A stretch of 64,000 nt of DNA, taken from contig CAXXKT010000003.1 in NCBI GenBank assembly GCA_963662405.2, positions 256,001 through 320,000 on the forward strand, in the 5' to 3' direction. Position 1 is the stretch's first letter. The number at the start of each line of letters is the position of its first letter. Positions 6,215-53,817 of this stretch are shown here, piece by piece. The notes under the pieces were generated by a model. That model did not search any database and was not told the origin of the DNA. It saw only the letters and a program-made list of their open reading frames with translations. The position numbers and the translations under genes are program-made. The stretch is from Syntrophales bacterium (lineage in GTDB: Bacteria > Desulfobacterota > Syntrophia > Syntrophales > UBA2210).

Positions 6215-7285
6215 ATGGCCGAGCAGAACAAAGATCAGGAAAAAACCGAACAAGCTACCCCTAAGAAGCGCGAAGATGCGCGGAAAAAGGGGCAGGTGGC
6301 AAAGAGTCGTGAGGCCTCGTCCGTGGCGGTGCTGCTGGCCGGGCTCCTTTTCTTCTGGTTTGGCTCCGCCGGTATGGGCGAAGAGATCATGGCCCTTACC
6401 CGGTGGTCGCTCACCCAGTCGTCCCGATTCGTCATCGATTGTACCAATATCCAGGTCCTCGTGATCGATGTGGTATACAGAAGCTTTCTGATCGTTTTCC
6501 CCCTCTTTCTGGCGGTATTTTCCATCGCGCTGCTGGTCAATTACCTGCAGGTCGGGTTCGCTATCTCCGTGGAGGCGATACAGCCGAAGTTTTCAAAGAT
6601 CGATCCGATAAAGGGCGCCGGCAAACTGCTGTCGCTCCGATCTCTTGTTGAACTGGCGAAAAATATCTTCAAGCTCCTGGTGGTCGGTTTCACGGTCTAT
6701 CTCATCTTGGAGGGGGAAAAAGAACACTTTGTCCTCCTGGTGGACCAGAGTGTGTCGGGGATCCTGCTGTACACCTGCAGGATCGCTTTCAAGATTATCC
6801 TCAGCGTTTGCCTTGTACTGATCATCCTGGCCGTATTCGATTATATCTACCAGCGGTGGGAATTCGAAAAAGACCTGAAGATGACGAAGCAGGAGGTCAA
6901 GGATGAATCGAAACAATCGGACGGGGATCCCCTCATCCGAGCGCGGATACGGCGCCTCCAGAGAGATGCGGCGAGAAAGAGGATGATGGCAAATGTCCCG
7001 AAGGCGGATGTGGTGATCACCAACCCCACCCATCTTGCCGTGGCGCTTCTCTACGACCAGGAACGGATGTCCGCGCCAAAGGTGGTCGCAAAGGGGGCTG
7101 ATCTTATCGCCGCGAATATCCGAGAGATCGCCAGAAAAAATAATATTCCCATCGTAAACAACAAGCCGCTGGCACAGGTATTGTATAAGAAGGTGGGTGT
7201 GGATGAAATGATACCCGCCGATTTGTACCGGGCGGTCGCCGAGGTCCTGGCTTTCGTGTACGGCATAAAAGTAAACCAGAGGTAA
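6215..7285 (+). CDS. flhB: Flagellar export switch protein FlhB
   Basis: EKTEQATPKK N-terminus; NPTH autocleavage site. Confidence 0.96.
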   Translation: MAEQNKDQEKTEQATPKKREDARKKGQVAKSREASSVAVLLAGLLFFWFGSAGMGEEIMALTRWSLTQSSRFVIDCTNIQVLVIDVVYRSFLIVFPLFLAVFSIALLVNYLQVGFAISVEAIQPKFSKIDPIKGAGKLLSLRSLVELAKNIFKLLVVGFTVYLILEGEKEHFVLLVDQSVSGILLYTCRIAFKIILSVCLVLIILAVFDYIYQRWEFEKDLKMTKQEVKDESKQSDGDPLIRARIRRLQRDAARKRMMANVPKADVVITNPTHLAVALLYDQERMSAPKVVAKGADLIAANIREIARKNNIPIVNNKPLAQVLYKKVGVDEMIPADLYRAVAEVLAFVYGIKVNQR

Positions 7286-7288
7286 AGG

Positions 7289-9373
7289 ATGACGCAATCA
7301 TACGCTGATGCGAGCAGTTTTGCCGGTCTCTTCCGGGGGAGCAATACGGTAATGGCCGCGGGGATAGCCGGTATCCTTCTCGTCATGATGATACCCTTAC
7401 CCCCCTTCGTCCTGGATATCCTCCTTTCTTTCAGCATCACCTTTGCCCTGATCATCCTCCTGGTTTCCGTGTACGTGCCGCGCCCTCTGGACTTTTCCGC
7501 CTTCCCGTCCGTGCTCCTGATTGCGACACTCCTTCGCCTCTCACTCAATGTGGCCTCCACGCGGCTCATTCTCCTCCACGGCGGAGAAGGGGCGGGGGCG
7601 GCCGGGCAGGTCATCCAGGCATTCGGCGCCTTCGTCGTGGGCGGCAATTACGTGGTTGGTCTTATCGTTTTCCTGGTTCTTGTCCTGATCAACTTTGTCG
7701 TCATCACCAAGGGGGCCACGAGGATCGCCGAGGTGGCGGCGCGCTTTACCCTGGATGCGATGCCCGGGAAACAGATGAGCATCGATGCCGATCTTAACGC
7801 GGGACTCATCTCCGATGCGGAGGCGCGGAAAAGACGACGCGAGATTGCCCTCGAGGCGGATTTTTACGGTTCCATGGACGGTGCGAGTAAATTTGTCAGG
7901 GGGGACGCGATTGCGGGAATCGTTATCACCATCACGAATATACTCGGCGGTCTGATTATCGGTGTGATGCAGCAGGGTATGGCGGTGGCGGATGCCGCCC
8001 ACACCTATAGCCTCCTCACCGTGGGGGATGGGTTGGTCACCCAGGTCCCGGCGCTGGTCGTTTCGACCGCTGCGGGGATGCTGATCTCCCGTTCGACTGC
8101 CTCGGGAGACCTGAGCAGGGAAGTGGCGGGTCAGCTCTTCGTCCAACCCAAGGTCGTGGCCTCGGCTTCGGCAATTCTCCTGATATTCGGATTAATCCCG
8201 GGCATGCCGAAGGTTTCTTTTCTTCTCCTCTCTCTTGGTTCCGGAATCGTTGCGTACCGGACATTTGTCTCCTCGCAGAAGGTCGTTGAGGTGGAGGAGA
8301 AACCGGCGGCGGAACCGGCGACCGAATCCATTGAGGATCTCCTGCCGCTCGATTCCCTCGAACTGGAGATGGGATACAGTCTGGTCCCCCTTGTCGATGC
8401 AGCACAAGGAGGAGAACTCTTGAAGAGGATCAAGGTCCTGAGAAAACAGATGGCCGTTGAATTGGGATTTATCATGCCCCCGATCCATATACGGGATAAC
8501 CTCCAGGTAAAGCCCGGTGAATATATCGTCAAGCTCAAGGGGGTCGAGGTGGCCCGGGGAGATATACAGATGGGTCGATACCTGGCGATCATCCCGGGCG
8601 ATGAGGGGGGCACGATCAAAGGGACACAGACAAAGGAGCCCTCTTTCGGTCTTCCCGCCGTCTGGATAGACGAGAGAGAGAAAGAATCTGTTCAGGCAAA
8701 GGGGTGCGTGGTCGTCGATCCGGCCACCGTAATCACGACCCATCTGACCGAGCTTGTCAAGGTGCATGCCGCTGAACTCCTGGGGAGGCAGGATGTCCAG
8801 TTTCTCTTGGACAGCCTGGGACACAGTCATCCGAAGGTGGTGGAGGAGATTGTTCCCAAAATCGTTTCGCTCGGTACGCTCCAAAAGGTACTCCAGAGAC
8901 TCCTGCGGGAGCGGGTCTCGATACGTGATTTTCTGACGATCCTGGAAACCGTGGCGGATTACGCGCCACTCACGAAGAACGTCGATGTCCTGACCGGGTA
9001 TGTGAGGCAGACCCTGGCCAGGCTGATCACGAGGGAGTATAGGGACGCCGACGGGAACATCACCGTCGTTCTGCTTTCGCCCGACATCGAGGAGCGTATC
9101 GGTAAATCGATCCAACATGCCGAATACGAATCGTTCGTTGTTGCCGATCCGGTACTGATCCAGAAAATGGTGGAAAAACTGCAGCGGTTCATCGAGGGCT
9201 TTACCGAGAAGGGGTTGCCGCCGGTCATCCTCTGCTCTCCCACGATCAGGATGTATGCCTGGAATATACTGGAAAAGTTTTTTCCCACGATCGTTGTCCT
9301 TTCTCACAACGAGATTGCCCGTGATGTAACAATCAAATCCCTGGGGATGCTGGTGTTGAGCGATGCAGATTAA
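7289..9373 (+). CDS. flhA: Flagellar export gate protein FlhA
   Basis: RIAEVAARFTLDAMPGKQMSIDADL and FYGSMDGASKFVRGD. Confidence 0.97.
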   Translation: MTQSYADASSFAGLFRGSNTVMAAGIAGILLVMMIPLPPFVLDILLSFSITFALIILLVSVYVPRPLDFSAFPSVLLIATLLRLSLNVASTRLILLHGGEGAGAAGQVIQAFGAFVVGGNYVVGLIVFLVLVLINFVVITKGATRIAEVAARFTLDAMPGKQMSIDADLNAGLISDAEARKRRREIALEADFYGSMDGASKFVRGDAIAGIVITITNILGGLIIGVMQQGMAVADAAHTYSLLTVGDGLVTQVPALVVSTAAGMLISRSTASGDLSREVAGQLFVQPKVVASASAILLIFGLIPGMPKVSFLLLSLGSGIVAYRTFVSSQKVVEVEEKPAAEPATESIEDLLPLDSLELEMGYSLVPLVDAAQGGELLKRIKVLRKQMAVELGFIMPPIHIRDNLQVKPGEYIVKLKGVEVARGDIQMGRYLAIIPGDEGGTIKGTQTKEPSFGLPAVWIDEREKESVQAKGCVVVDPATVITTHLTELVKVHAAELLGRQDVQFLLDSLGHSHPKVVEEIVPKIVSLGTLQKVLQRLLRERVSIRDFLTILETVADYAPLTKNVDVLTGYVRQTLARLITREYRDADGNITVVLLSPDIEERIGKSIQHAEYESFVVADPVLIQKMVEKLQRFIEGFTEKGLPPVILCSPTIRMYAWNILEKFFPTIVVLSHNEIARDVTIKSLGMLVLSDAD

Positions 9374-43392: not shown

Positions 43393-43501
43393 TCAGACCC
43401 ATTTGGTGTGATCGTATTGTGTGGCCCGTCGCCCTTATCATGCGCGGAAGTAATCTGATAGGGGAGGGTCGTGATATGTTCAGATGCGTCGAGAAAATAA
43501 T

Positions 43502-44029
43502 ATGTTCAGAGTACCCCGCCATATCGCCGTCGATATCGAAACAACCGGTCTCTCCCCGCGCCGGGGCCACCGGATCATCGAGATCGGGGCGGTTGCCATA
43601 GAGGACGGATGCCCTGCGGAATCATTCTGCAGTCTTATCAGGATCGACCGGGAGATCCCCCGCGAGGTCCAGCGGATCCATGGGATCACCGACGAGATGC
43701 TTGTAGGCCAGCCGAGGGCCGATGAGGTCCTGCCGCAACTGCTCGATTTCCTAGGGGACGGCGTTATCGTTGCCCACAACGCCCGCTTCGATATGGGATT
43801 CCTCCGGCACGAATTCGAGCGTCTGTCCCTCCCCCTGCGAAACAGGTCCGCCTGTACCCTCCAGATGAGCAGGCGGCTCTATCCCCACCTCCCCAACCAC
43901 CGGCTCGATACCGTCTACCGCCACCTCTTTGGAGAAATCAGGGAAGATATCCAAAGGCACCGCGCCCTCGACGACGCCCGGATGGCGGCACGGATCTGGA
44001 TTGCGATGCGGCAACACAGCAGTCGATGA
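43502..44029 (+). CDS. DEDDh 3'-5' exonuclease (DnaQ/epsilon-like)
   Basis: DIETTG, AHNARFD, HRALDDA. Confidence 0.92.
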   Translation: MFRVPRHIAVDIETTGLSPRRGHRIIEIGAVAIEDGCPAESFCSLIRIDREIPREVQRIHGITDEMLVGQPRADEVLPQLLDFLGDGVIVAHNARFDMGFLRHEFERLSLPLRNRSACTLQMSRRLYPHLPNHRLDTVYRHLFGEIREDIQRHRALDDARMAARIWIAMRQHSSR

Positions 44030-44523
44030 ATCCATCCAACGGTCAAGCCCCTGGCTCAGGTGACAAGCGTTCGTCTCCGAACACGCCGGTGTGCCGTTGC
44101 AGGAAGAAAAAAACCACAATGGAGAAATCAATCATTGTCTTTTTGATACGTCTATGTTACGGAAAATGCCAGATTTCAAGGGGATGCACAGGTGCAATCT
44201 GCACGGCATGAAGGGCCGTTTCTGAGTCGCCGAGAGCGTCAACCCGAGATTCTTATCGCCTTGCTCAAATGCGCTTCATTTGAGCATCGCAGCCGCACCC
44301 TCCCCATCAACATCGTCGCCTGACGCGGCAACAGCCATATCCACGATTCAAGACAGTTTGTTGTAAGTAATTAACAATCAAAACAATAAGAGCTGAGAAG
44401 TGCAGAGTGAGAAATATTTTTCTCCGCATGTTTTTTGATGCCGGGCCGGGGAAAAAATGCTTTTCCTGTTCGATCGATCGTTAATTTACCACATCACACT
44501 GCAAAAGGATTTATCTGAAGACA

Positions 44524-46707
44524 ATGACCAAGAAATATTACGCACACAGCCTGGATGGAAGGCCCCTCGACGAATGGCAAACCCTTGAGGATCACCTAAG
44601 AAATGTTGCAGAGATGGCAGCGGATTTTGCCAGCTATTTTGGTTCACAAGCGTGGGGTGACATATTAGGGGCAAACCATGACCTTGGTAAAGGGATTCTT
44701 CCGTGGCAGGCATATTTAAGACAAGCAAATGGCATTATTGATGAGTTCTCTTCGTTTTATGAAGGTCATCCAACTCATGCTTTTAGTGGTGCCCAGTGGC
44801 TCGCTCGGAATTCAAAAGAATCTGGGAAATTGATGGCCTACTGTATCGCCGGACACCATGGAGGATTGCCGAACTGGAGCGACGTATCTGATGCAGCATT
44901 GGAAACAAGACTTGAGAAAGACTATCCTAAAGTCGAGATACCTTGCCCTGTTCCTGATTATCCTCGAGAACTACCTTTTTCATTTGATCCTGAACGGTTT
45001 GGGTTCCAATTGCAATTTTTTATCCGAATGCTATTTTCTTGCCTAGTAGATGCAGATTTCCTTGATACAGAAAACTCTCTGGATAGAACAAGAGCGGAAT
45101 GGCGTTCTTGCTATCCAAGGATTGATGAGCTCCATGAGAAATTCTGGATAAACTTTACAGCACTTCGTGGCGGATCTGACCAAACGACAAAAGTCAATCA
45201 ACAACGTGAGCATGTTCTCGAAGCGTGTTTACAGGCAGCTGAATCAGATCCAGGGGTGTTTTCGTTAACCGTTCCAACCGGTGGGGGTAAGACTTTGGCA
45301 TCGTTGGCCTTTGCGCTCAACCATGCGAAAAAGCATGAAATGAAGAGAAGAGTTATCTATGTCATTCCTTTTACCAGTATTATCGAGCAAAGTGCCAAAG
45401 TCTTTCGAGATATGCTTGGGGACGACGCTGTTTTGGAACATCACTGTAATTTTCTTCCTCATGACGCGGATTGGAAAACCAAGCTGGCTTCGGAAAATTG
45501 GGATGCCCCGGTCGTTGTTACAACAAATGTTCAGTTTTTCAATTCATTCCACTCGAACAGGCCAGCGAAGTGCCGTAAGCTTCACAATGTAACTAACAGT
45601 ATAATTATCTTCGATGAAGTTCAGGCTATTCCTGTTGAAAAACTGCAACCCTGCCTTGAGGTTATCAAAGAACTGTCGCTGAATTATGGTGTCACATCGG
45701 TCTTGTGTACGGCAACACAACCTGCAATTAAGTTTTCGGAAAATTTCAAATCAGGACTTAAAGATGTCCGAGAGATAATTCATGATGTTCCTGCGCTCTT
45801 TTCAGCATTGAAACGAACTGAAGAAAAATTTGTCGGAACGCTCAGCGTGCAGGAGGTCGCAGACAGACTTTTGGCACATGAACAAGTGTTATGTATTGTA
45901 AATACCCGTCAGCAAGCCATTGACATATTTAATGCTTTACCTGAGTCTGACTCGAACATTCATCTAAGTGCTTTGATGCACCCGGCGCACCGGACTGAAA
46001 AACTAGCTGAAATAAGAGCCAGATTGTCATGCCCGCAAAAGATGTCATGTCGAGTTGTCAGTACACAATTGATAGAAGCCGGAGTAGATGTCGATTTTCC
46101 CTGTGTCTTTCGTGCGGTAGCTGGAATTGACAGTATTGCTCAGGCTGCAGGTCGATGTAATCGCAATGGATTGAGCAAAACCCCGTGCGAGGTGTATGTC
46201 TTTAAACTTCCGGAGGAGTCTGCATGTTCCTTTTTTCGTCATGCTGCCGAGTCGGCTGCTAAGCTATTTGAGCCATTTACGGGAAGACTTACATCGCCTG
46301 AGTGCGTCCGGGAATATTTTAGTGATTTCTTCTGGAAGAATGAAGGTCGAATGGATGCGGATGGCATTATCGAAAATATGTGTCGCTCAGCTCAGTCGGG
46401 TGAGATTCAGTTCAAAGATATCGCACGCTTTCAGATGATTGTATCTGCAACGATTCCCATCATAGTGGCCTTACAAGAAGATGCCCTTGAATTGGTAAGA
46501 GCATTGGAATTTACGGAACACAAAGGGGGCATTTTAAGAAAACTACAAAAGTTTACGGTTCAGATATACCCCTATCAGTTTGAAGAGATAAAGGACTGGC
46601 TGGAGGACCCTGTGCCGGGAATTTGGGTGTTACGCTCGGAAGAACTTTATTCAAAGGCAACGGGTCTTAAATGTAAGCCGCCGGAAGGATATGCGTTTTT
46701 TGGATAA
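44524..46707 (+). CDS. cas3: CRISPR-associated HD nuclease/helicase Cas3 (type I-C)
   Basis: YYAHS, HDLGK, HHGGL, LVDAD; PTGGGKT, DEVQ, TATQP, QAAGRCNR. Confidence 0.96.
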   Translation: MTKKYYAHSLDGRPLDEWQTLEDHLRNVAEMAADFASYFGSQAWGDILGANHDLGKGILPWQAYLRQANGIIDEFSSFYEGHPTHAFSGAQWLARNSKESGKLMAYCIAGHHGGLPNWSDVSDAALETRLEKDYPKVEIPCPVPDYPRELPFSFDPERFGFQLQFFIRMLFSCLVDADFLDTENSLDRTRAEWRSCYPRIDELHEKFWINFTALRGGSDQTTKVNQQREHVLEACLQAAESDPGVFSLTVPTGGGKTLASLAFALNHAKKHEMKRRVIYVIPFTSIIEQSAKVFRDMLGDDAVLEHHCNFLPHDADWKTKLASENWDAPVVVTTNVQFFNSFHSNRPAKCRKLHNVTNSIIIFDEVQAIPVEKLQPCLEVIKELSLNYGVTSVLCTATQPAIKFSENFKSGLKDVREIIHDVPALFSALKRTEEKFVGTLSVQEVADRLLAHEQVLCIVNTRQQAIDIFNALPESDSNIHLSALMHPAHRTEKLAEIRARLSCPQKMSCRVVSTQLIEAGVDVDFPCVFRAVAGIDSIAQAAGRCNRNGLSKTPCEVYVFKLPEESACSFFRHAAESAAKLFEPFTGRLTSPECVREYFSDFFWKNEGRMDADGIIENMCRSAQSGEIQFKDIARFQMIVSATIPIIVALQEDALELVRALEFTEHKGGILRKLQKFTVQIYPYQFEEIKDWLEDPVPGIWVLRSEELYSKATGLKCKPPEGYAFFG

Positions 46708-49084
<2,377 letters not shown>

Positions 49085-49085
<1 letters not shown>

Positions 49086-49951
49086 TGAACGAGCCTATCA
49101 AAAACCGCTATGAGTTTGTTCTGCTCTTTGATGTGAAAAATGGAAACCCCAATGGTGATCCGGACGGTGGAAATATGCCCCGTATTGACCCGGAAACCGG
49201 GCATGGGATTACGACCGATGTCTGTTTAAAACGCAAGGTTCGAAACTATGTTGACTTGGTCCGGAACGGTGAAAAAGAATACAATATTTATATCAAGGAA
49301 AAAGCTGTTCTAACTGAAGCCAGAAAACCTGCCTACGAAGCGGTGGCAGATGAAAAAGAAAAATCGGCTAAAATCAGTAAGGCACGTGTGTGGATGTGTG
49401 AAAATTTCTTTGATGTTCGAACATTTGGAGCGGTTATGTCTACCAAAGAAAACAACTGTGGCCAGGTTCGGGGACCTGTGCAGTTCTCTTTTGCGCAGAG
49501 TATTGACCCTATTGTTCCTTTGGAGGCGAGTATTACCCGTATGGCAGTAGAAACTAGGAAAGAGGCCGACTCTCAGGATGGCGATAATAGAACAATGGGG
49601 CGTAAAGCATATATCCCTTATGGCCTGTATCGTGTTCACGGTTTCATTTCCGCTCCGTTGGCACGGCAGACTGGATTTTCCGAAGATGACCTTGAGGTTT
49701 TTTGGGATGCTCTCCGTAACATGTTTGACCATGATCGTTCTGCGGCTCGGGGGGAGATGGCTGCTCAGAAGCTTATTGTATTCAAACACGAAAGAGATCT
49801 TGGAAACGCTCCGGCCCACAAATTGTTTGATCTCGTTTCAATCAGACGTTCAACCGATGCCGATATCCCGGCCCGTGGATTTTCTGACTACGTTGTCGAG
49901 ATCGACAGAAACAGTGTTCCTCACGGTGTAACTATCGAAGAAAAGATTTAG
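49085..49951 (+). CDS. cas7c: Cas7c/Csd2
   Basis: NGNPNGDPD.GNMPR.D; TDVCLKRKVR; FDVRTFGAV; DHDRSAARG. Confidence 0.96.
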
Positions 49952-50010
49952 AGGAGCCCATAATAGTAGAACAAGGAATAACTTCCGTTTGAGGTTTTGG
50001 CGGTTCTCTC

Positions 50011-50661
50011 ATGAAGCGCTCCGGTCGATATGACATCTCAGGTCTTGCCGAAGCCCAGTTTGAGCCGGGTTCGCGAGGCCGTGTTCTGCGAAACCTTATC
50101 GGAGTAAAGAGCATCAGGGAAATGGATCGCATAGAAGGAGAGGCGCTTGTACGGACCTTTGGTGATCTTGTAACTATCTACGATGAGTCATACAGCTTCA
50201 GCGCCTCCGATCTATGTAAGATGCACAGGAGATGGCTCTCCGGAATCTACGAGTGGGCCGGTCAATACCGGCAGGTAAATCTCTCAAAGGGGGATTTTAC
50301 CTTCGCAGGCGCTCATTTGATCCCCGGACTGATGGCCGATTTTGAAAGCCGTTATCTTGCAGTTTATACGCCCTGTCGGTTTTCGAAAAGAAAAGACCTG
50401 GCGCAGGCCCTTGCCGTAGTACATGTGGAATTGCTTCTGGTTCACCCTTTCAGGGAAGGCAACGGTCGAATTGCACGCACTCTGGCATCACTCATGGCGC
50501 TTCAGGCAAAATTGCCTCCGCTGGATTTTGGTACACTGAGAGGCAAAAATAAACAGAGGTATTTTGAAGCCGTTCAACTTGGACTGGATAGGGATTATGT
50601 ACCGATGGAGAAGATTTTTGACGAGATAATAGATAATACTCTGCAGTTACCGGGCGGCTGA
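50011..50661 (+). CDS. fic: Fic-domain protein (AMPylating toxin-like)
   Basis: Canonical HPFREGNGRIAR active-site motif; YEWAGQYR.VNLSKG. Confidence 0.93.
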   Translation: MKRSGRYDISGLAEAQFEPGSRGRVLRNLIGVKSIREMDRIEGEALVRTFGDLVTIYDESYSFSASDLCKMHRRWLSGIYEWAGQYRQVNLSKGDFTFAGAHLIPGLMADFESRYLAVYTPCRFSKRKDLAQALAVVHVELLLVHPFREGNGRIARTLASLMALQAKLPPLDFGTLRGKNKQRYFEAVQLGLDRDYVPMEKIFDEIIDNTLQLPGG

Positions 50662-50823
50662 TTTTTTCCTTGTCTCTTTGTTCGTCTGGAGCAGATCACT
50701 AAAGGCAGAGAGGGGCACACCTTCGATTGCTGACGAAGACGCCACGTTCATGACGATTGCGGCTTTTCGCTCAGCGGGGTTTTTAAGATAGGGATTTGTC
50801 TGCGTGAGGTTTTTCTTTTTCAT
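50647..50823 (-). CDS. Putative Fic antitoxin, 58 aa (FicA/VbhA-like inhibitory helix)
   Basis: MKKKNL...VASSSAIEGVP carries the (S/T)xxxE(G/N) motif; own promoter; overlaps the fic 3' end by 15 nt. Confidence 0.75.
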   Translation of the reverse strand: MKKKNLTQTNPYLKNPAERKAAIVMNVASSSAIEGVPLSAFSDLLQTNKETRKKSAAR

Positions 50824-50829
50824 GATGCT

Positions 50830-50858
50830 ACTGTACCAGAACACGGCTGTTTTATCAA
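50830..50858 (-). promoter_or_regulatory. sigma70 promoter for the leaderless antitoxin mRNA
   Basis: Minus strand TTGATA-N17-(TGG)TACAGT, 6 nt before the ATG. Confidence 0.65.
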
Positions 50859-50910
50859 AGGGAAATAATTGGATTAACATTTTGAAATAACTATCTAAAA
50901 TGGTAAGAAT

Positions 50911-51543
50911 ATGTATACTGAAGACGATCTTCTCCCCCTGTCCGCCCTGCAGCACCTTATCTTCTGCGAGCGGCAGTGCGCCCTGATTCACATCGAGCAG
51001 GCGTGGGCCGAGAATCTCTTCACCGCCGAAGGGAGGGTCATGCACGAGCGTGTCCACGAAGAGGGGAGGGAATCGAGAGGCGATATCCGCGTTGAACATG
51101 GGCTCTCTCTCCGATCACTGCGGCTGGGGCTGATCGGGAAAGCGGACGTCGTAGAATTCCACCGATGGAAAGGTGGCTCCTGGTTGCCGTTTCCCGTGGA
51201 ATACAAACGAGGCAAGCCGAAGAAGGACAACGGCGACCGGGTGCAGCTCTGTGCACAGGCGCTCTGTCTTGAAGAGATGCTGAACATCGCGGTGCCCGAG
51301 GGTGCTCTTTTTTATGGGAAAAACCGACGCCGTGCGGAGGTTGTTTTTGACATCCCATTGCGGAAAGAAACGGAAGATGCCGCGATACGGCTGCACGAAC
51401 TGATTGCATCCGGGCGGACGCCGAAACCGGTCTATACGAAGAGGTGTGATGCCTGCTCGCTGGCGGCTCTATGCCTGCCGAAGACGGTGGGAAAGAGAAG
51501 GACCGTGCAGCGTTATTTGTCGGGGGTGATGCGAGAGCTATGA
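50911..51543 (+). CDS. cas4: Cas4
   Basis: LQHLIFCERQC, G.ADVVEF, PVEYKRG, QLCAQA, CDAC...C. Confidence 0.95.
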   Translation: MYTEDDLLPLSALQHLIFCERQCALIHIEQAWAENLFTAEGRVMHERVHEEGRESRGDIRVEHGLSLRSLRLGLIGKADVVEFHRWKGGSWLPFPVEYKRGKPKKDNGDRVQLCAQALCLEEMLNIAVPEGALFYGKNRRRAEVVFDIPLRKETEDAAIRLHELIASGRTPKPVYTKRCDACSLAALCLPKTVGKRRTVQRYLSGVMREL

Positions 51544-52571
51544 AGCGACACCTCAATACCCTTTTTGTCACGACGCAGGGGGCCTATCTCGCCAAGGAGG
51601 GGGAGACGGCCGTGGTGAAGGTGGAAAAAGAGATTCGCCTTCGCGTTCCGATCCACACGATCGGTGGAATTGTCTGTTTCGGTCAGGTATCCATCAGCCC
51701 GTTCCTCATGGGTTTCTGCGCGGAGCGTGATGTTGCGATCAGTTTCCTGTCGGAGCATGGACGATTCCTGGCGCGGGTACAGGGGCCGGTTTCGGGAAAT
51801 GTCCTGCTCCGCAGAGAGCAGTATCGACGTGCCGATGATCCTGCTTCATCCGCTGAAATAGCGAAGGCCGTCGTGACCGGCAAGATCGCCAACTGCCGAA
51901 CGGTTCTCCAGCGGGCGTTGCGGGACCACGGCGACAAGCCGGGAACGGATGAGATCGAACAGGCCTCGCGGAGGCTTGCCGCGTCCTTGAAATCCCTTGC
52001 CCGTGAGGGATCTTTGGACGCGGTGCGCGGGATCGAAGGGGATGCGGCGAACAGGTACTTCGGTGTCTTCGATCATCTCATCACCTCACAGAAAAAGGAT
52101 TTCTCTTTTCATGAGAGAAGCCGCCGTCCGCCCCTGGACAAGGTGAACTGCCTCCTGTCCTTTTTGTACACCCTCGTCATGCATGATGTCCGCTCCGCCC
52201 TCGAATCGGTAGGCCTGGACCCGGCGGTCGGATTCCTGCACCGGGACCGCCCGGGGAGACCGAGTCTCGCTCTTGACATGATGGAGGAGTTCAGACCGTT
52301 CATGGCCGATCGGATGGCACTCTCTTTGATCAATCTGTCACAGGTCCGAAAGAAGGGGTTTGATACAACCGAATCGGGCGCTGTCCTCATGGACGACGAG
52401 ACACGGAAGTCCCTCCTGATTGCCTATCAGAAACGGAAGCAGGACGAGATCGTACACCCCTTTCTCAATGAAAAGGTGACAGTCGGGCTCCTCTTTCACA
52501 CGCAGGTCCTGCTGCTGGCCCGGTATCTGAGGGGCGATCTGGACGGATATCCGCCCTTTATCTGGAAATAG
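51540..52571 (+). CDS. cas1: Cas1 (type I-C)
   Basis: LNTLFVTTQG.YL; RGIEG.AA..YF; R.RRPPLD.VN; GFLH.DRPGRPSLALD. Confidence 0.97.
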   Translation: MKRHLNTLFVTTQGAYLAKEGETAVVKVEKEIRLRVPIHTIGGIVCFGQVSISPFLMGFCAERDVAISFLSEHGRFLARVQGPVSGNVLLRREQYRRADDPASSAEIAKAVVTGKIANCRTVLQRALRDHGDKPGTDEIEQASRRLAASLKSLAREGSLDAVRGIEGDAANRYFGVFDHLITSQKKDFSFHERSRRPPLDKVNCLLSFLYTLVMHDVRSALESVGLDPAVGFLHRDRPGRPSLALDMMEEFRPFMADRMALSLINLSQVRKKGFDTTESGAVLMDDETRKSLLIAYQKRKQDEIVHPFLNEKVTVGLLFHTQVLLLARYLRGDLDGYPPFIWK

Positions 52572-52582
52572 GAGCGAAGGGT

Positions 52583-52873
52583 ATGTTTGTGCTTGTCAGT
52601 TATGATGTGGCGACAGTCGAAAAAGGGGGGCAGCGTCGCCTGCGCCGGGTGGCGAAGGCGTGTCAGGATTATGGCCAGCGTGTCCAGTACTCCGTTTTTG
52701 AGTGTATCGTCGATCCGGCGCAATGGACGATGCTCCGGCAGCGGCTGATCAGCGAGATCAATCTCGAATCGGACAGTCTGCGGTTCTATTACCTGGGGTC
52801 GAATTGGAAGCGCCGTGTCGAGCATGTGGGCGCCAAAGAAGGCCTTGATCAGGAAGGGCCGCTCATTGCCTGA
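52583..52873 (+). CDS. cas2: Cas2
   Basis: VLVSYDV; YGQRVQYSVFEC; DSLRFYYL. Confidence 0.97.
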   Translation: MFVLVSYDVATVEKGGQRRLRRVAKACQDYGQRVQYSVFECIVDPAQWTMLRQRLISEINLESDSLRFYYLGSNWKRRVEHVGAKEGLDQEGPLIA

Positions 52874-53057
52874 TAGGTGTCCGCGAACCCGAAGCTTGCA
52901 GCAAATCCCTGGGGGATTCGCGGAGCGTATAATGCATTGGAAATAAAGATAAATTTTGAAACGTTCATTGACAATTGAATACGGGATACGTTGAAAAGAT
53001 ACGGTTCGCAGAAAATGGGTATTAACCGTTGTAAGATTGATAAGTTATAATGTTATA
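52874..53057 (+). promoter_or_regulatory. CRISPR leader
   Basis: AT-rich region between cas2 and the first repeat; CCGCGAACCC...GGGATTCGCGG inverted motif and GGTTCGC. Confidence 0.8.
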
Positions 53058-53817
53058 GTCGCCCCCCTCGCGGGGGCGTGGATTGAAACATGTCTTCAAG
53101 GGCTTGCCGTAACCCATCCAACCGTCGCCCCCCTCGCGGGGGCGTGGATTGAAACATGATGTTCATGTCAGATTTGCCTTTGACCATAGTCGCCCCCCTC
53201 GCGGGGGCGTGGATTGAAACCTCGACCGATGGCGAAAGGATGGGGACCGACCGATGGTCGCCCCCCTCGCGGGGGCGTGGATTGAAACGACAACTGCGAC
53301 TACTGGCCCGTCCCGAAGGGCAAGTCGCCCCCCTCGCGGGGGCGTGGATTGAAACATGACGGGGTTTCTTACGAACTGCGCGAGACCGAAGTCGCCCCCC
53401 TCGCGGGGGCGTGGATTGAAACACGCCATCGAAGTCGCTTGCGACCTCGAATTCTGTCGCCCCCCTCGCGGGGGCGTGGATTGAAACTCAACCCCTCGTA
53501 CTTGCATTTCGGACACCCAACGTCGCCCCCCTCGCGGGGGCGTGGATTGAAACATCAGTCACCAGTCCCCGTGCCGTTCCGTTGCTGTCGCCCCCCTCGC
53601 GGGGGCGTGGATTGAAACGTACATCAAGCCCTGTGTATGATGGTGGCTTGAGTCGCCCCCCTCGCGGGGGCGTGGATTGAAACCGGGATATCCTGGTCGA
53701 CGGAATGAAGGGCGACTGGGTCGCCCCCCTCGCGGGGGCGTGGATTGAAACCTAAATCAAGGCTTTTTTATGCTCGATAAATCGGGTCGCCCCCCTTGCG
53801 GGGGTGTGGATTGAAAG
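53058..53817 (+). CRISPR. Type I-C CRISPR array: 12 repeats, 11 spacers (33-36 nt)
   Basis: 32-nt repeat GTCGCCCCCCTCGCGGGGGCGTGGATTGAAAC at 53058, 53124, 53189, 53257, 53324, 53391, 53456, 53522, 53587, 53652, 53720; degenerate terminal copy at 53786 (3 mismatches). Confidence 0.99.

Follow-up and report, generated by a model that had tools for sequence, protein, structure and literature searches.

Why does a type I-C cas operon contain, between cas7 and cas4, a gene for a Fic-domain protein that runs head-on into a short open reading frame (ORF) on the opposite strand? The question is posed by a stretch of 64,000 nucleotides (nt) from the genome of a Syntrophales bacterium (GenBank assembly GCA_963662405.2, contig CAXXKT010000003.1, positions 256,001 to 320,000 of the forward strand), hereafter the window, in which the fic gene is read in the same direction as the cas genes. 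An earlier note on this DNA had proposed that fic and a convergent ORF of 58 amino acids (aa) form a toxin-antitoxin pair that acts as a safeguard of CRISPR-Cas. All the sequence features on which that proposal was built, namely the Fic motif, the 59-nt gap after cas7, the 58-aa ORF with its SSAIEG motif, the overlap of the two genes and the promoter of the small gene, are present in the window. With a probability of about 0.72, we read the pair as a class I-type, two-gene Fic toxin-antitoxin module of unusual layout, and as a mobile, stabilising or abortive accessory rather than a device specific to CRISPR-Cas.

The Fic protein and its small convergent partner

The closest solved structures to the window Fic protein are class I toxins, VbhT (E-value (E) 4.8e-12) and Fic-1 (8wt0; E 1e-11), the latter aligning with residues 16-212, that is, with nearly the whole protein. 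The full catalytic motif HxFx(D/E)GNGRxxR is kept in 42 of 43 aligned Fic relatives. By contrast, the inhibitory motif [ST]xxxE[GN] does not occur within the window Fic, nor does it form a conserved column in the 43-row Fic alignment, where its commonest position is filled in 9 of 43 rows. The PADLOC model PDLC04839, which stands for the defence candidate PDC-S04, matches the protein at E 7.2e-70, with residues 6-208 aligned to positions 3-203 of the 205 in the model. About 59 kb past the end of the window (locus L003, G000:C3:378853-379098), the same genome holds another gene with a Fic domain (PF02661, E 1.7e-14); in the genome as a whole, the small gene occurs once.

The small gene, with its ATG at 50823 and its stop at 50647, corresponds to the final 58 codons of a listed 150-aa ORF (50647-51099), and its 3' end overlaps that of fic by 15 nt (50647-50661). 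No relevant match to its product was obtained in Pfam (E<=10), NCBIfam, PADLOC or PDB sequences, the Pfam, NCBIfam and PDB searches having used the single sequence as well as a six-row profile, and a word-indexed protein search returned only five relatives. When one genome per species was scanned with a sequence pattern, 134 relatives were confirmed; the best 80 of these, together with the window copy, make up the set of 81 loci used below. The gene is an open frame in all 81 loci, with products of 54-83 aa in which a common N-terminal block, M-KK-L--TNPYLK-P--R------V-SSAIEG, gives way to a variable tail where Lys, Arg and Ser abound; M1, L13, S30 and E34 are invariant in the 81-row alignment, and the [ST]xxxE[GN] motif is found in 79 members. 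A profile search of 1.84 billion representatives recovered 1,072 clusters at E<=0.001, 403 of them at E<=1e-10. Among the best 150 clusters listed, lengths range from 47 to 153 aa and many entries carry 20-60 surplus N-terminal residues, an overextension that can be put down to gene callers, which err at start codons that have no ribosome-binding site. The ten clusters looked up bear solely the name 'hypothetical protein' and, once, 'Fic family protein'. For eight Syntrophales copies, the pooled ratio of non-synonymous to synonymous polymorphism (pN/pS) is 0.20 in codons 1-37, a part of the gene that does not overlap fic. Conservation of the 58-aa ORF, on which the proposed pairing hinged, is thus borne out, and on this comparative evidence the ORF is a real gene that is conserved as a protein, beyond what chance would produce. 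A tblastn search of plasmids and phages with the 58-aa protein gave no match at E<=0.001, although with so short a query against a very large database this search is a weak one.

A full convergent Fic ORF lies directly 3' of the small gene in 44 of the 81 loci, and in every one of these 44 the small gene is convergent with and downstream of fic, as in the window; the 3' ends overlap by 4-119 nt in 42 of the 44 pairs. The other loci comprise two with a full-length Fic match not contained in a single ORF, 12 with Fic fragments and 23 with no Fic, three of the last having less than 500 nt of contig downstream. In the reverse test, 80 metagenome loci were seeded with the Fic alignment and those were counted in which the 3' end of Fic was matched and followed by at least 250 nt. 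The small ORF was present in 35 of 39 such loci at a Fic identity of at least 45%, in 2 of 9 at 38-45% and in 3 of 14 below 38%. That the small gene is retained where Fic has decayed is what one would expect of an antitoxin.

Orphan small genes that stand without Fic (L005, L008 and about 20 other loci) are open and conserved, with a pN/pS of 0.09 between L004 and L008, and several of them lie in restriction-modification (R-M) operons, adjoining genes for zeta toxin, DUF3800, Schlafen or AbiEii proteins. These copies may be anti-addiction remnants or servants of another partner.

Prediction of the complex, with alignments supplied for both proteins, yielded an ipSAE of 0.93 in three runs as against 0.00 for the best control; in calibration, 116 of 157 solved complexes but just 2 of 215 mismatched pairs scored this high. 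The runs share at least 95% of contacts, and the pLDDT of the small protein is 82-83. In the modelled interface, Fic residues 150, 152-153 and 156-157, which belong to the GNGRxxR part of the motif, face residues 22-34 of the small protein; Ser30 and Ser31 contact Arg153 and Arg156, and Glu34 falls within the listed interface, a predicted geometry that is the one expected of an inhibitory helix. The score lends support, at the level of a model, to binding of the small protein to Fic. Comparative pairing, motif conservation and the complex model agree on the proposed partnership, and the two genes look like those of a Fic toxin and its antitoxin.

Two other explanations of the pair bear on the same evidence. 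The 58-aa ORF might be a chance frame, with the conserved signal being non-coding, either a promoter or an antisense RNA; the lack of a match in the four databases would fit this, as would the frequency with which gene callers miss or extend the small gene. We nevertheless regard it as highly improbable: the frame is open throughout the set, conservation acts at the amino acid level, the residues that never vary coincide with a motif of known function, and the complex model is confident with its controls at zero. Alternatively, the small protein might turn Fic into a deAMPylase, so that the pair would form a regulatory AMPylase/deAMPylase switch that reversibly tunes a host target such as gyrase. 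The Fic-1-AntF complex is reported to strip AMP from GyrB in a manner dependent on Glu28 of the antitoxin (PMC13327609), the window Fic aligns with Fic-1 over almost its whole length, and every member of the small family retains the inhibitory Glu. Such a switch is compatible with the toxin-antitoxin reading and no replacement for it, however, and the decay of Fic alongside a preserved small gene (12 fragmentary and 23 absent of 81) is what a costly toxin would be expected to show; we consider the switch quite unlikely as an explanation in its own right.

Promoter signals and predicted transcription

The small gene had been credited with its own promoter and a leaderless mRNA, and the comparison of loci supports both, strongly so for the leaderless mRNA. 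In 64 of the 81 loci the hexamer TAnnnT stands 5-7 nt ahead of the start codon, the distance being exactly 6 nt in 52, whereas at any other offset between 0 and 39 nt it occurs in at most 8 of 81. Applied as a control to Fic start codons, the same test was positive in 1 of 42. Of the 64 loci, 35 also have TGn in front of the hexamer, and a Shine-Dalgarno-like core is found at the small gene in 4 of 81. With a -10 box conserved at 5-7 nt from the start codon, the mRNA of the small gene is therefore probably leaderless.

The fic gene presents a different picture. In a simple scan, the gap between cas7 and fic contains no promoter-like or terminator-like site, and the three terminator-like hits in 49000-51600 correspond to the chance level (2.7 expected). 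In 31 loci an ORF of 110 aa or longer lies no more than 300 nt from Fic; in 24 of these the gene 5' of Fic is co-oriented with it, which fits a toxin gene that depends on read-through from its host operon. The claim that toxin level follows transcription of the Cascade genes is plausible on these grounds: the signal-free gap and the co-orientation point the way claimed. Further downstream, the promoter-like site ahead of cas4 (Table 1) is partly conserved, with the final T of its -10 lost in relatives, and its status is uncertain.

The type I-C locus and the spread of the module

The host locus in the window is a complete type I-C system, with cas3, cas5, cas8c, cas7, cas4, cas1, cas2 and an array. 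The G+C content of fic (0.49-0.51) lies between the values of the interference and adaptation blocks that flank it (Table 1), and across relatives the identity of Cas1 is 70-87% versus 29-43% for Cas8c. The G+C step and this contrast place the module where two blocks of different histories meet; the sharpness of the step inside the cas operon (window 44000-53000) suggests that the two blocks were brought together by recombination. A gene for a DEDDh-type 3'-5' exonuclease (RNase_T family, E 1.1e-37; 43484-44029, + strand) ends about 500 nt 5' of cas3.

Table 1. Coordinates of the features discussed; positions refer to the window unless a genome (G) or locus (L) is named
Feature	Position	Strand	Basis or remark
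fic, 216 aa, class-I-type Fic, predicted AMP-transferase toxin	50011-50661	+	PF02661, E 2.9e-18
Fic active-site motif HPFREGNGRIAR, His145 to Arg156	50443-50478	+	read from sequence
Spacer, cas7 stop to fic start, 59 nt	49952-50010	+	
Small gene, 58 aa, predicted Fic antitoxin (free-standing inhibitory helix), unnamed family	50647-50823	-	relatives, alignment, pN/pS, complex model
SSAIEG, Ser30 to Gly35, fits (S/T)xxxE(G/N) inhibitory motif	50719-50736	-	read from sequence
Small-gene promoter TTGATA, 17 nt, TG-n-TACAGT, ending 6 nt before ATG	50830-50858	-	sequence scan
Promoter-like site TTAACA, 16 nt, TAAAAT, 9 nt before cas4 start	50874-50901	+	sequence scan
cas3	44524-46707	+	Pfam + NCBIfam
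cas5	46720-47358	+	Pfam + NCBIfam
cas8c	47334-49085	+	Pfam + NCBIfam
cas7	49085-49951	+	Pfam + NCBIfam
cas4	50911-51543	+	Pfam + NCBIfam
cas1	51471-52571	+	Pfam + NCBIfam
cas2	52583-52873	+	Pfam + NCBIfam
CRISPR array, 12 repeats of 32 nt (11 identical, last 29/32)	53058-53817	+	
Interference block cas3-cas5-cas8c-cas7, 5' of fic and co-oriented	44524-49951	+	G+C 0.42-0.47
Adaptation block cas4-cas1-cas2	50911-52873	+	G+C 0.52-0.60
Cas-linked module, cas7/cas4 site	window, G248, G258; G229 (L008)		G229: small gene only, Fic absent
Cas-linked module, cas4/cas1 site	G014 (L007); G270 (L164)		G014: Fic internally deleted; G270: Fic intact
Cas-linked module, after array	G261 (L009)		about 680 nt past array
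Bro-N genes in I-C loci	L164 5871-6707; L166 2001-2846; L167 1938-2783; L168 1952-2797		

The module is spread over many phyla. HsdM, HsdS or HsdR was detected by tblastn in 25 of the 81 small-gene loci, and Pfam scans of neighbouring genes turned up type I and type III R-M systems, DUF3800, zeta toxin, AbiEii, RhuM, GmrSD, Schlafen and integrases, as well as housekeeping genes. A link to CRISPR-Cas is confined to a minority of copies: cas genes were found in none of the 80 Fic-seeded metagenome loci, and in a survey of 339 genomes of the window's order, Syntrophales, in which the small gene is present in 35 genomes (36 copies) and a type I-C cas7 above the family cut-off in 70, comparison of coordinates placed 7 of the 36 copies within 8.2 kb of a type I-C cas7 on the same contig and 29 elsewhere. 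These seven cas-linked copies come from seven genomes of four families and occupy three positions, all adjoining adaptation genes. In a tree of Fic proteins, all five intact ones from cas-linked copies group in one clade (support 100/99 in a 44-row tree from which the broken copies were left out), and one capture followed by rearrangement inside the locus therefore suffices to explain them. By hand count, the module sits at only 7 of about 88 type I-C cas1 places (identity of at least 60%) in the order.

These figures bear directly on the safeguard role that the earlier note had assigned to the pair. If the module were a guard or addiction device for CRISPR-Cas, the dose of Fic would track cas transcription while the supply of antitoxin stayed independent, and cas induction, an anti-CRISPR or loss of the antitoxin would free Fic, so that infection would be aborted or loss of the locus penalised. 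The co-orientation of fic with the cas operon and the signal-free gap before it are in keeping with such a device, as is the persistence of cas-linked copies, in four families and always beside adaptation genes, down to a Fic identity of about 64%. There is also a precedent in PrrC, a second-line toxin embedded in a type I R-M operon (PMC3710099), and it has been stated that toxin-antitoxin modules lying close to CRISPR loci could protect the cas genes (PMC10910872). Nevertheless, we consider a guard function unlikely. The cas-linked clade calls for no more than a single capture, most copies reside away from cas genes and most type I-C cas1 places have no module. Furthermore, no element was found that would couple the module to Cascade: the best candidate for a CRISPR repeat-like element in 44000-52900 matches at 17 of 32 positions, compared with 18 on average and 20 at most in 30 shuffles, and the spacers gave no match to the module (best 20 of 34-36). 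The antitoxin would act independently of Cascade, and since it would work with or without intact cas genes, only deletions and not point mutations in cas genes would be penalised. Finally, Fic is internally deleted in L007 and absent from L008, whereas the cas genes found in both loci align over most of their length, and unrelated cargo occupies the same slot in relatives. The dedicated safeguard or addiction role is thus not sustained by the survey, which depicts a generic module found mostly outside cas loci; it is a possibility for which little speaks specifically.

The cargo of related loci deserves description in its own right. In G252 (L165, G252:C48, 1334-2515), a genome of the same genus with a Cas1 88% identical, the slot between cas7 and cas4 holds a vestige of the small gene (residues 30-53, E 4e-4) that adjoins a gene for a 348-aa class II Fic protein (PADLOC SoFic, 3.5e-31); at this site, one type of Fic appears to have taken the place of another. 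Three genomes of the same family carry at the junction a 281-aa Bro-N protein (PDC-S13, 5.8e-114). Between cas7 and cas4, L007 encodes a RhuM-family protein (7166-8206; PF13310, E 5e-116; PDC-S05) and L164 a Bro-N protein. Within type I-C cas operons, Bro-N proteins of about 280 aa (PDC-S13) are usually encoded directly 5' of cas1 or between cas7 and cas4; by hand comparison, Bro-N lies within 3 kb of a type I-C cas1 in 24 loci from 23 of the 339 genomes and is far commoner there than the Fic module. A rough hand count of type I-C loci with both genes on one contig gave a cas7-cas1 gap of at least 1.2 kb in 39 of 60; the 21 compact loci have about 0.6-1.0 kb between the two genes, with room for cas4 alone. 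Junction cargo seems to be the rule in this order, its contents having been checked only in the loci named here.

One might go further and view the type I-C junction as a slot filled by interchangeable second-line toxins (the Fic pair, the SoFic-like Fic, RhuM and Bro-N) that are wired into CRISPR-Cas. Transcription of the cas genes would then set the dose of toxin, and the separately promoted, leaderless, convergent antitoxin would set the threshold; strong cas induction, transcriptional collision or shut-off of host transcription by a phage would free AMPylation and arrest the infected cell, so that CRISPR-Cas would have a back-up layer made of proteins. We hold such wiring to be unlikely and retain, as the better account of the pair, a mobile toxin-antitoxin module that has come to lie in the operon.

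Relation to known systems and proposed role

To our knowledge, Fic toxin-antitoxin pairs known so far carry the antitoxin gene upstream of the toxin gene, in the same operon. In Fic-1/AntF, it lies immediately upstream of the toxin (PMC13327609). The class I pairs VbhT/VbhA, EcFicT/YhfG and Fic-1/AntF, as classified in the same article, resemble the window pair in that a Fic protein with a full toxin motif and no inhibitory helix is accompanied by a separate protein of about 60 aa bearing (S/T)xxxE(G/N), and the window pair is predicted by the model to share the placement of the inhibitory helix on the arginines of the Fic motif. They differ in that the window antitoxin gene is, as judged from the sequence, downstream, convergent and 3'-overlapping, with its own promoter and a probably leaderless mRNA. 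This layout, combined with an apparently promoterless toxin gene, appears to be new for Fic systems. A search of the full-text literature, in which subscription journals are thinly covered, found no account of this antitoxin family, nor of any Fic antitoxin that is both convergent and leaderless.

Three further systems invite comparison. PDC candidates are defined by their embedding in BREX, DISARM and type I R-M systems (Payne et al., 10.1101/2024.01.29.577857); the words CRISPR and Fic are absent from the main text of that source. The window Fic matches the PDC-S04 model over its full length, and its relatives likewise occur inside R-M operons, but the S label reads as single-gene, whereas the window Fic has a partner gene for which PADLOC holds no model. 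Given that 35 of 39 close Fic relatives are accompanied by the small gene, PDC-S04 appears to be a two-gene toxin-antitoxin module. CreTA, too, is a toxin-antitoxin pair inside a type I cas locus; however, its toxin is described as an RNA that Cascade represses under the guidance of repeat-like CreA RNAs, whereas the window pair consists of two proteins, has no repeat-like element and would be neutralised without need of Cascade. Toxins of the PrrC/RloC type are similarly nested, co-directionally, within a multi-gene defence operon (type I R-M), and the presence of Fic/Doc-like and RhuM-like toxin genes within such operons was pointed out in 2013 (PMC3710099). Yet PrrC is kept inactive by the restriction enzyme itself, whereas the window Fic has a dedicated small antitoxin, and there is no sign of an interaction between the window module and the Cas proteins.

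Several observations weigh against the toxin-antitoxin reading or temper it. The family models for VbhA (PF18495) and YhfG (PF10832) match none of the 81 small-family members at E<=10, and the family yields only sub-threshold matches to Fic_N (10 of 81, best E 0.0014) and DUF4172 (8 of 81). These weak matches hint that the small protein stems from the helix at the N-terminus of class II Fic proteins, a homology that hhalign did not bear out when the 81-row profile was compared with two such proteins (motif only, probability 2-4%). Complexes of Fic proteins with antitoxins have already been solved (3shg, 8wt0, 5jfz), and the high ipSAE may therefore partly mirror likeness to them. The small gene persists alone in the 23 Fic-less loci and may therefore serve another role. 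Co-transcription of fic with the Cascade genes, although plausible, is read from the absence of signals in a simple scan. Lastly, PDC-S04 showed no defence phenotype in one test in a native host (10.1101/2024.12.20.629700). In a protein atlas, a YhfG cluster ranks 16th with a score of 0.85, which we treat as a lead only.

On balance, we favour the class I-type module, for which the following scheme may be drawn. The Fic protein, having no inhibitory helix of its own, would act as the toxin and, by analogy with VbhT, EcFicT and Fic-1, would AMPylate GyrB and ParE and thereby halt DNA replication. According to the model, the Ser30-x-x-x-Glu34-Gly35 segment of the small protein would rest on the motif arginines of Fic and keep ATP from binding productively. 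The antitoxin gene, convergent to that of the toxin, would have an extended -10 promoter to itself and yield a leaderless mRNA, and fic, with no recognisable promoter, would probably be transcribed by read-through from the host operon. The module would be a mobile one that lodges co-directionally in defence operons, mostly those of type I and type III R-M systems and, in one Syntrophales clade, type I-C cas operons, its most likely role being that of a selfish stabilising or abortive-infection accessory.

Under this reading, a widespread Fic family hitherto catalogued only as a single-gene candidate gains a partner, and the large family of proteins of roughly 60 aa to which the small gene belongs very probably supplies its antitoxin; expression of Fic alone in screens may accordingly mislead. 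The layout also offers a simple natural system for asking how convergent transcription sets the ratio of toxin to antitoxin. The cas7/cas4/cas1 junctions of Syntrophales often hold embedded defence-candidate genes, and embedding as a clue to defence function, drawn so far from R-M, BREX, DISARM and Hma systems, is suggested to extend to CRISPR-Cas operons.

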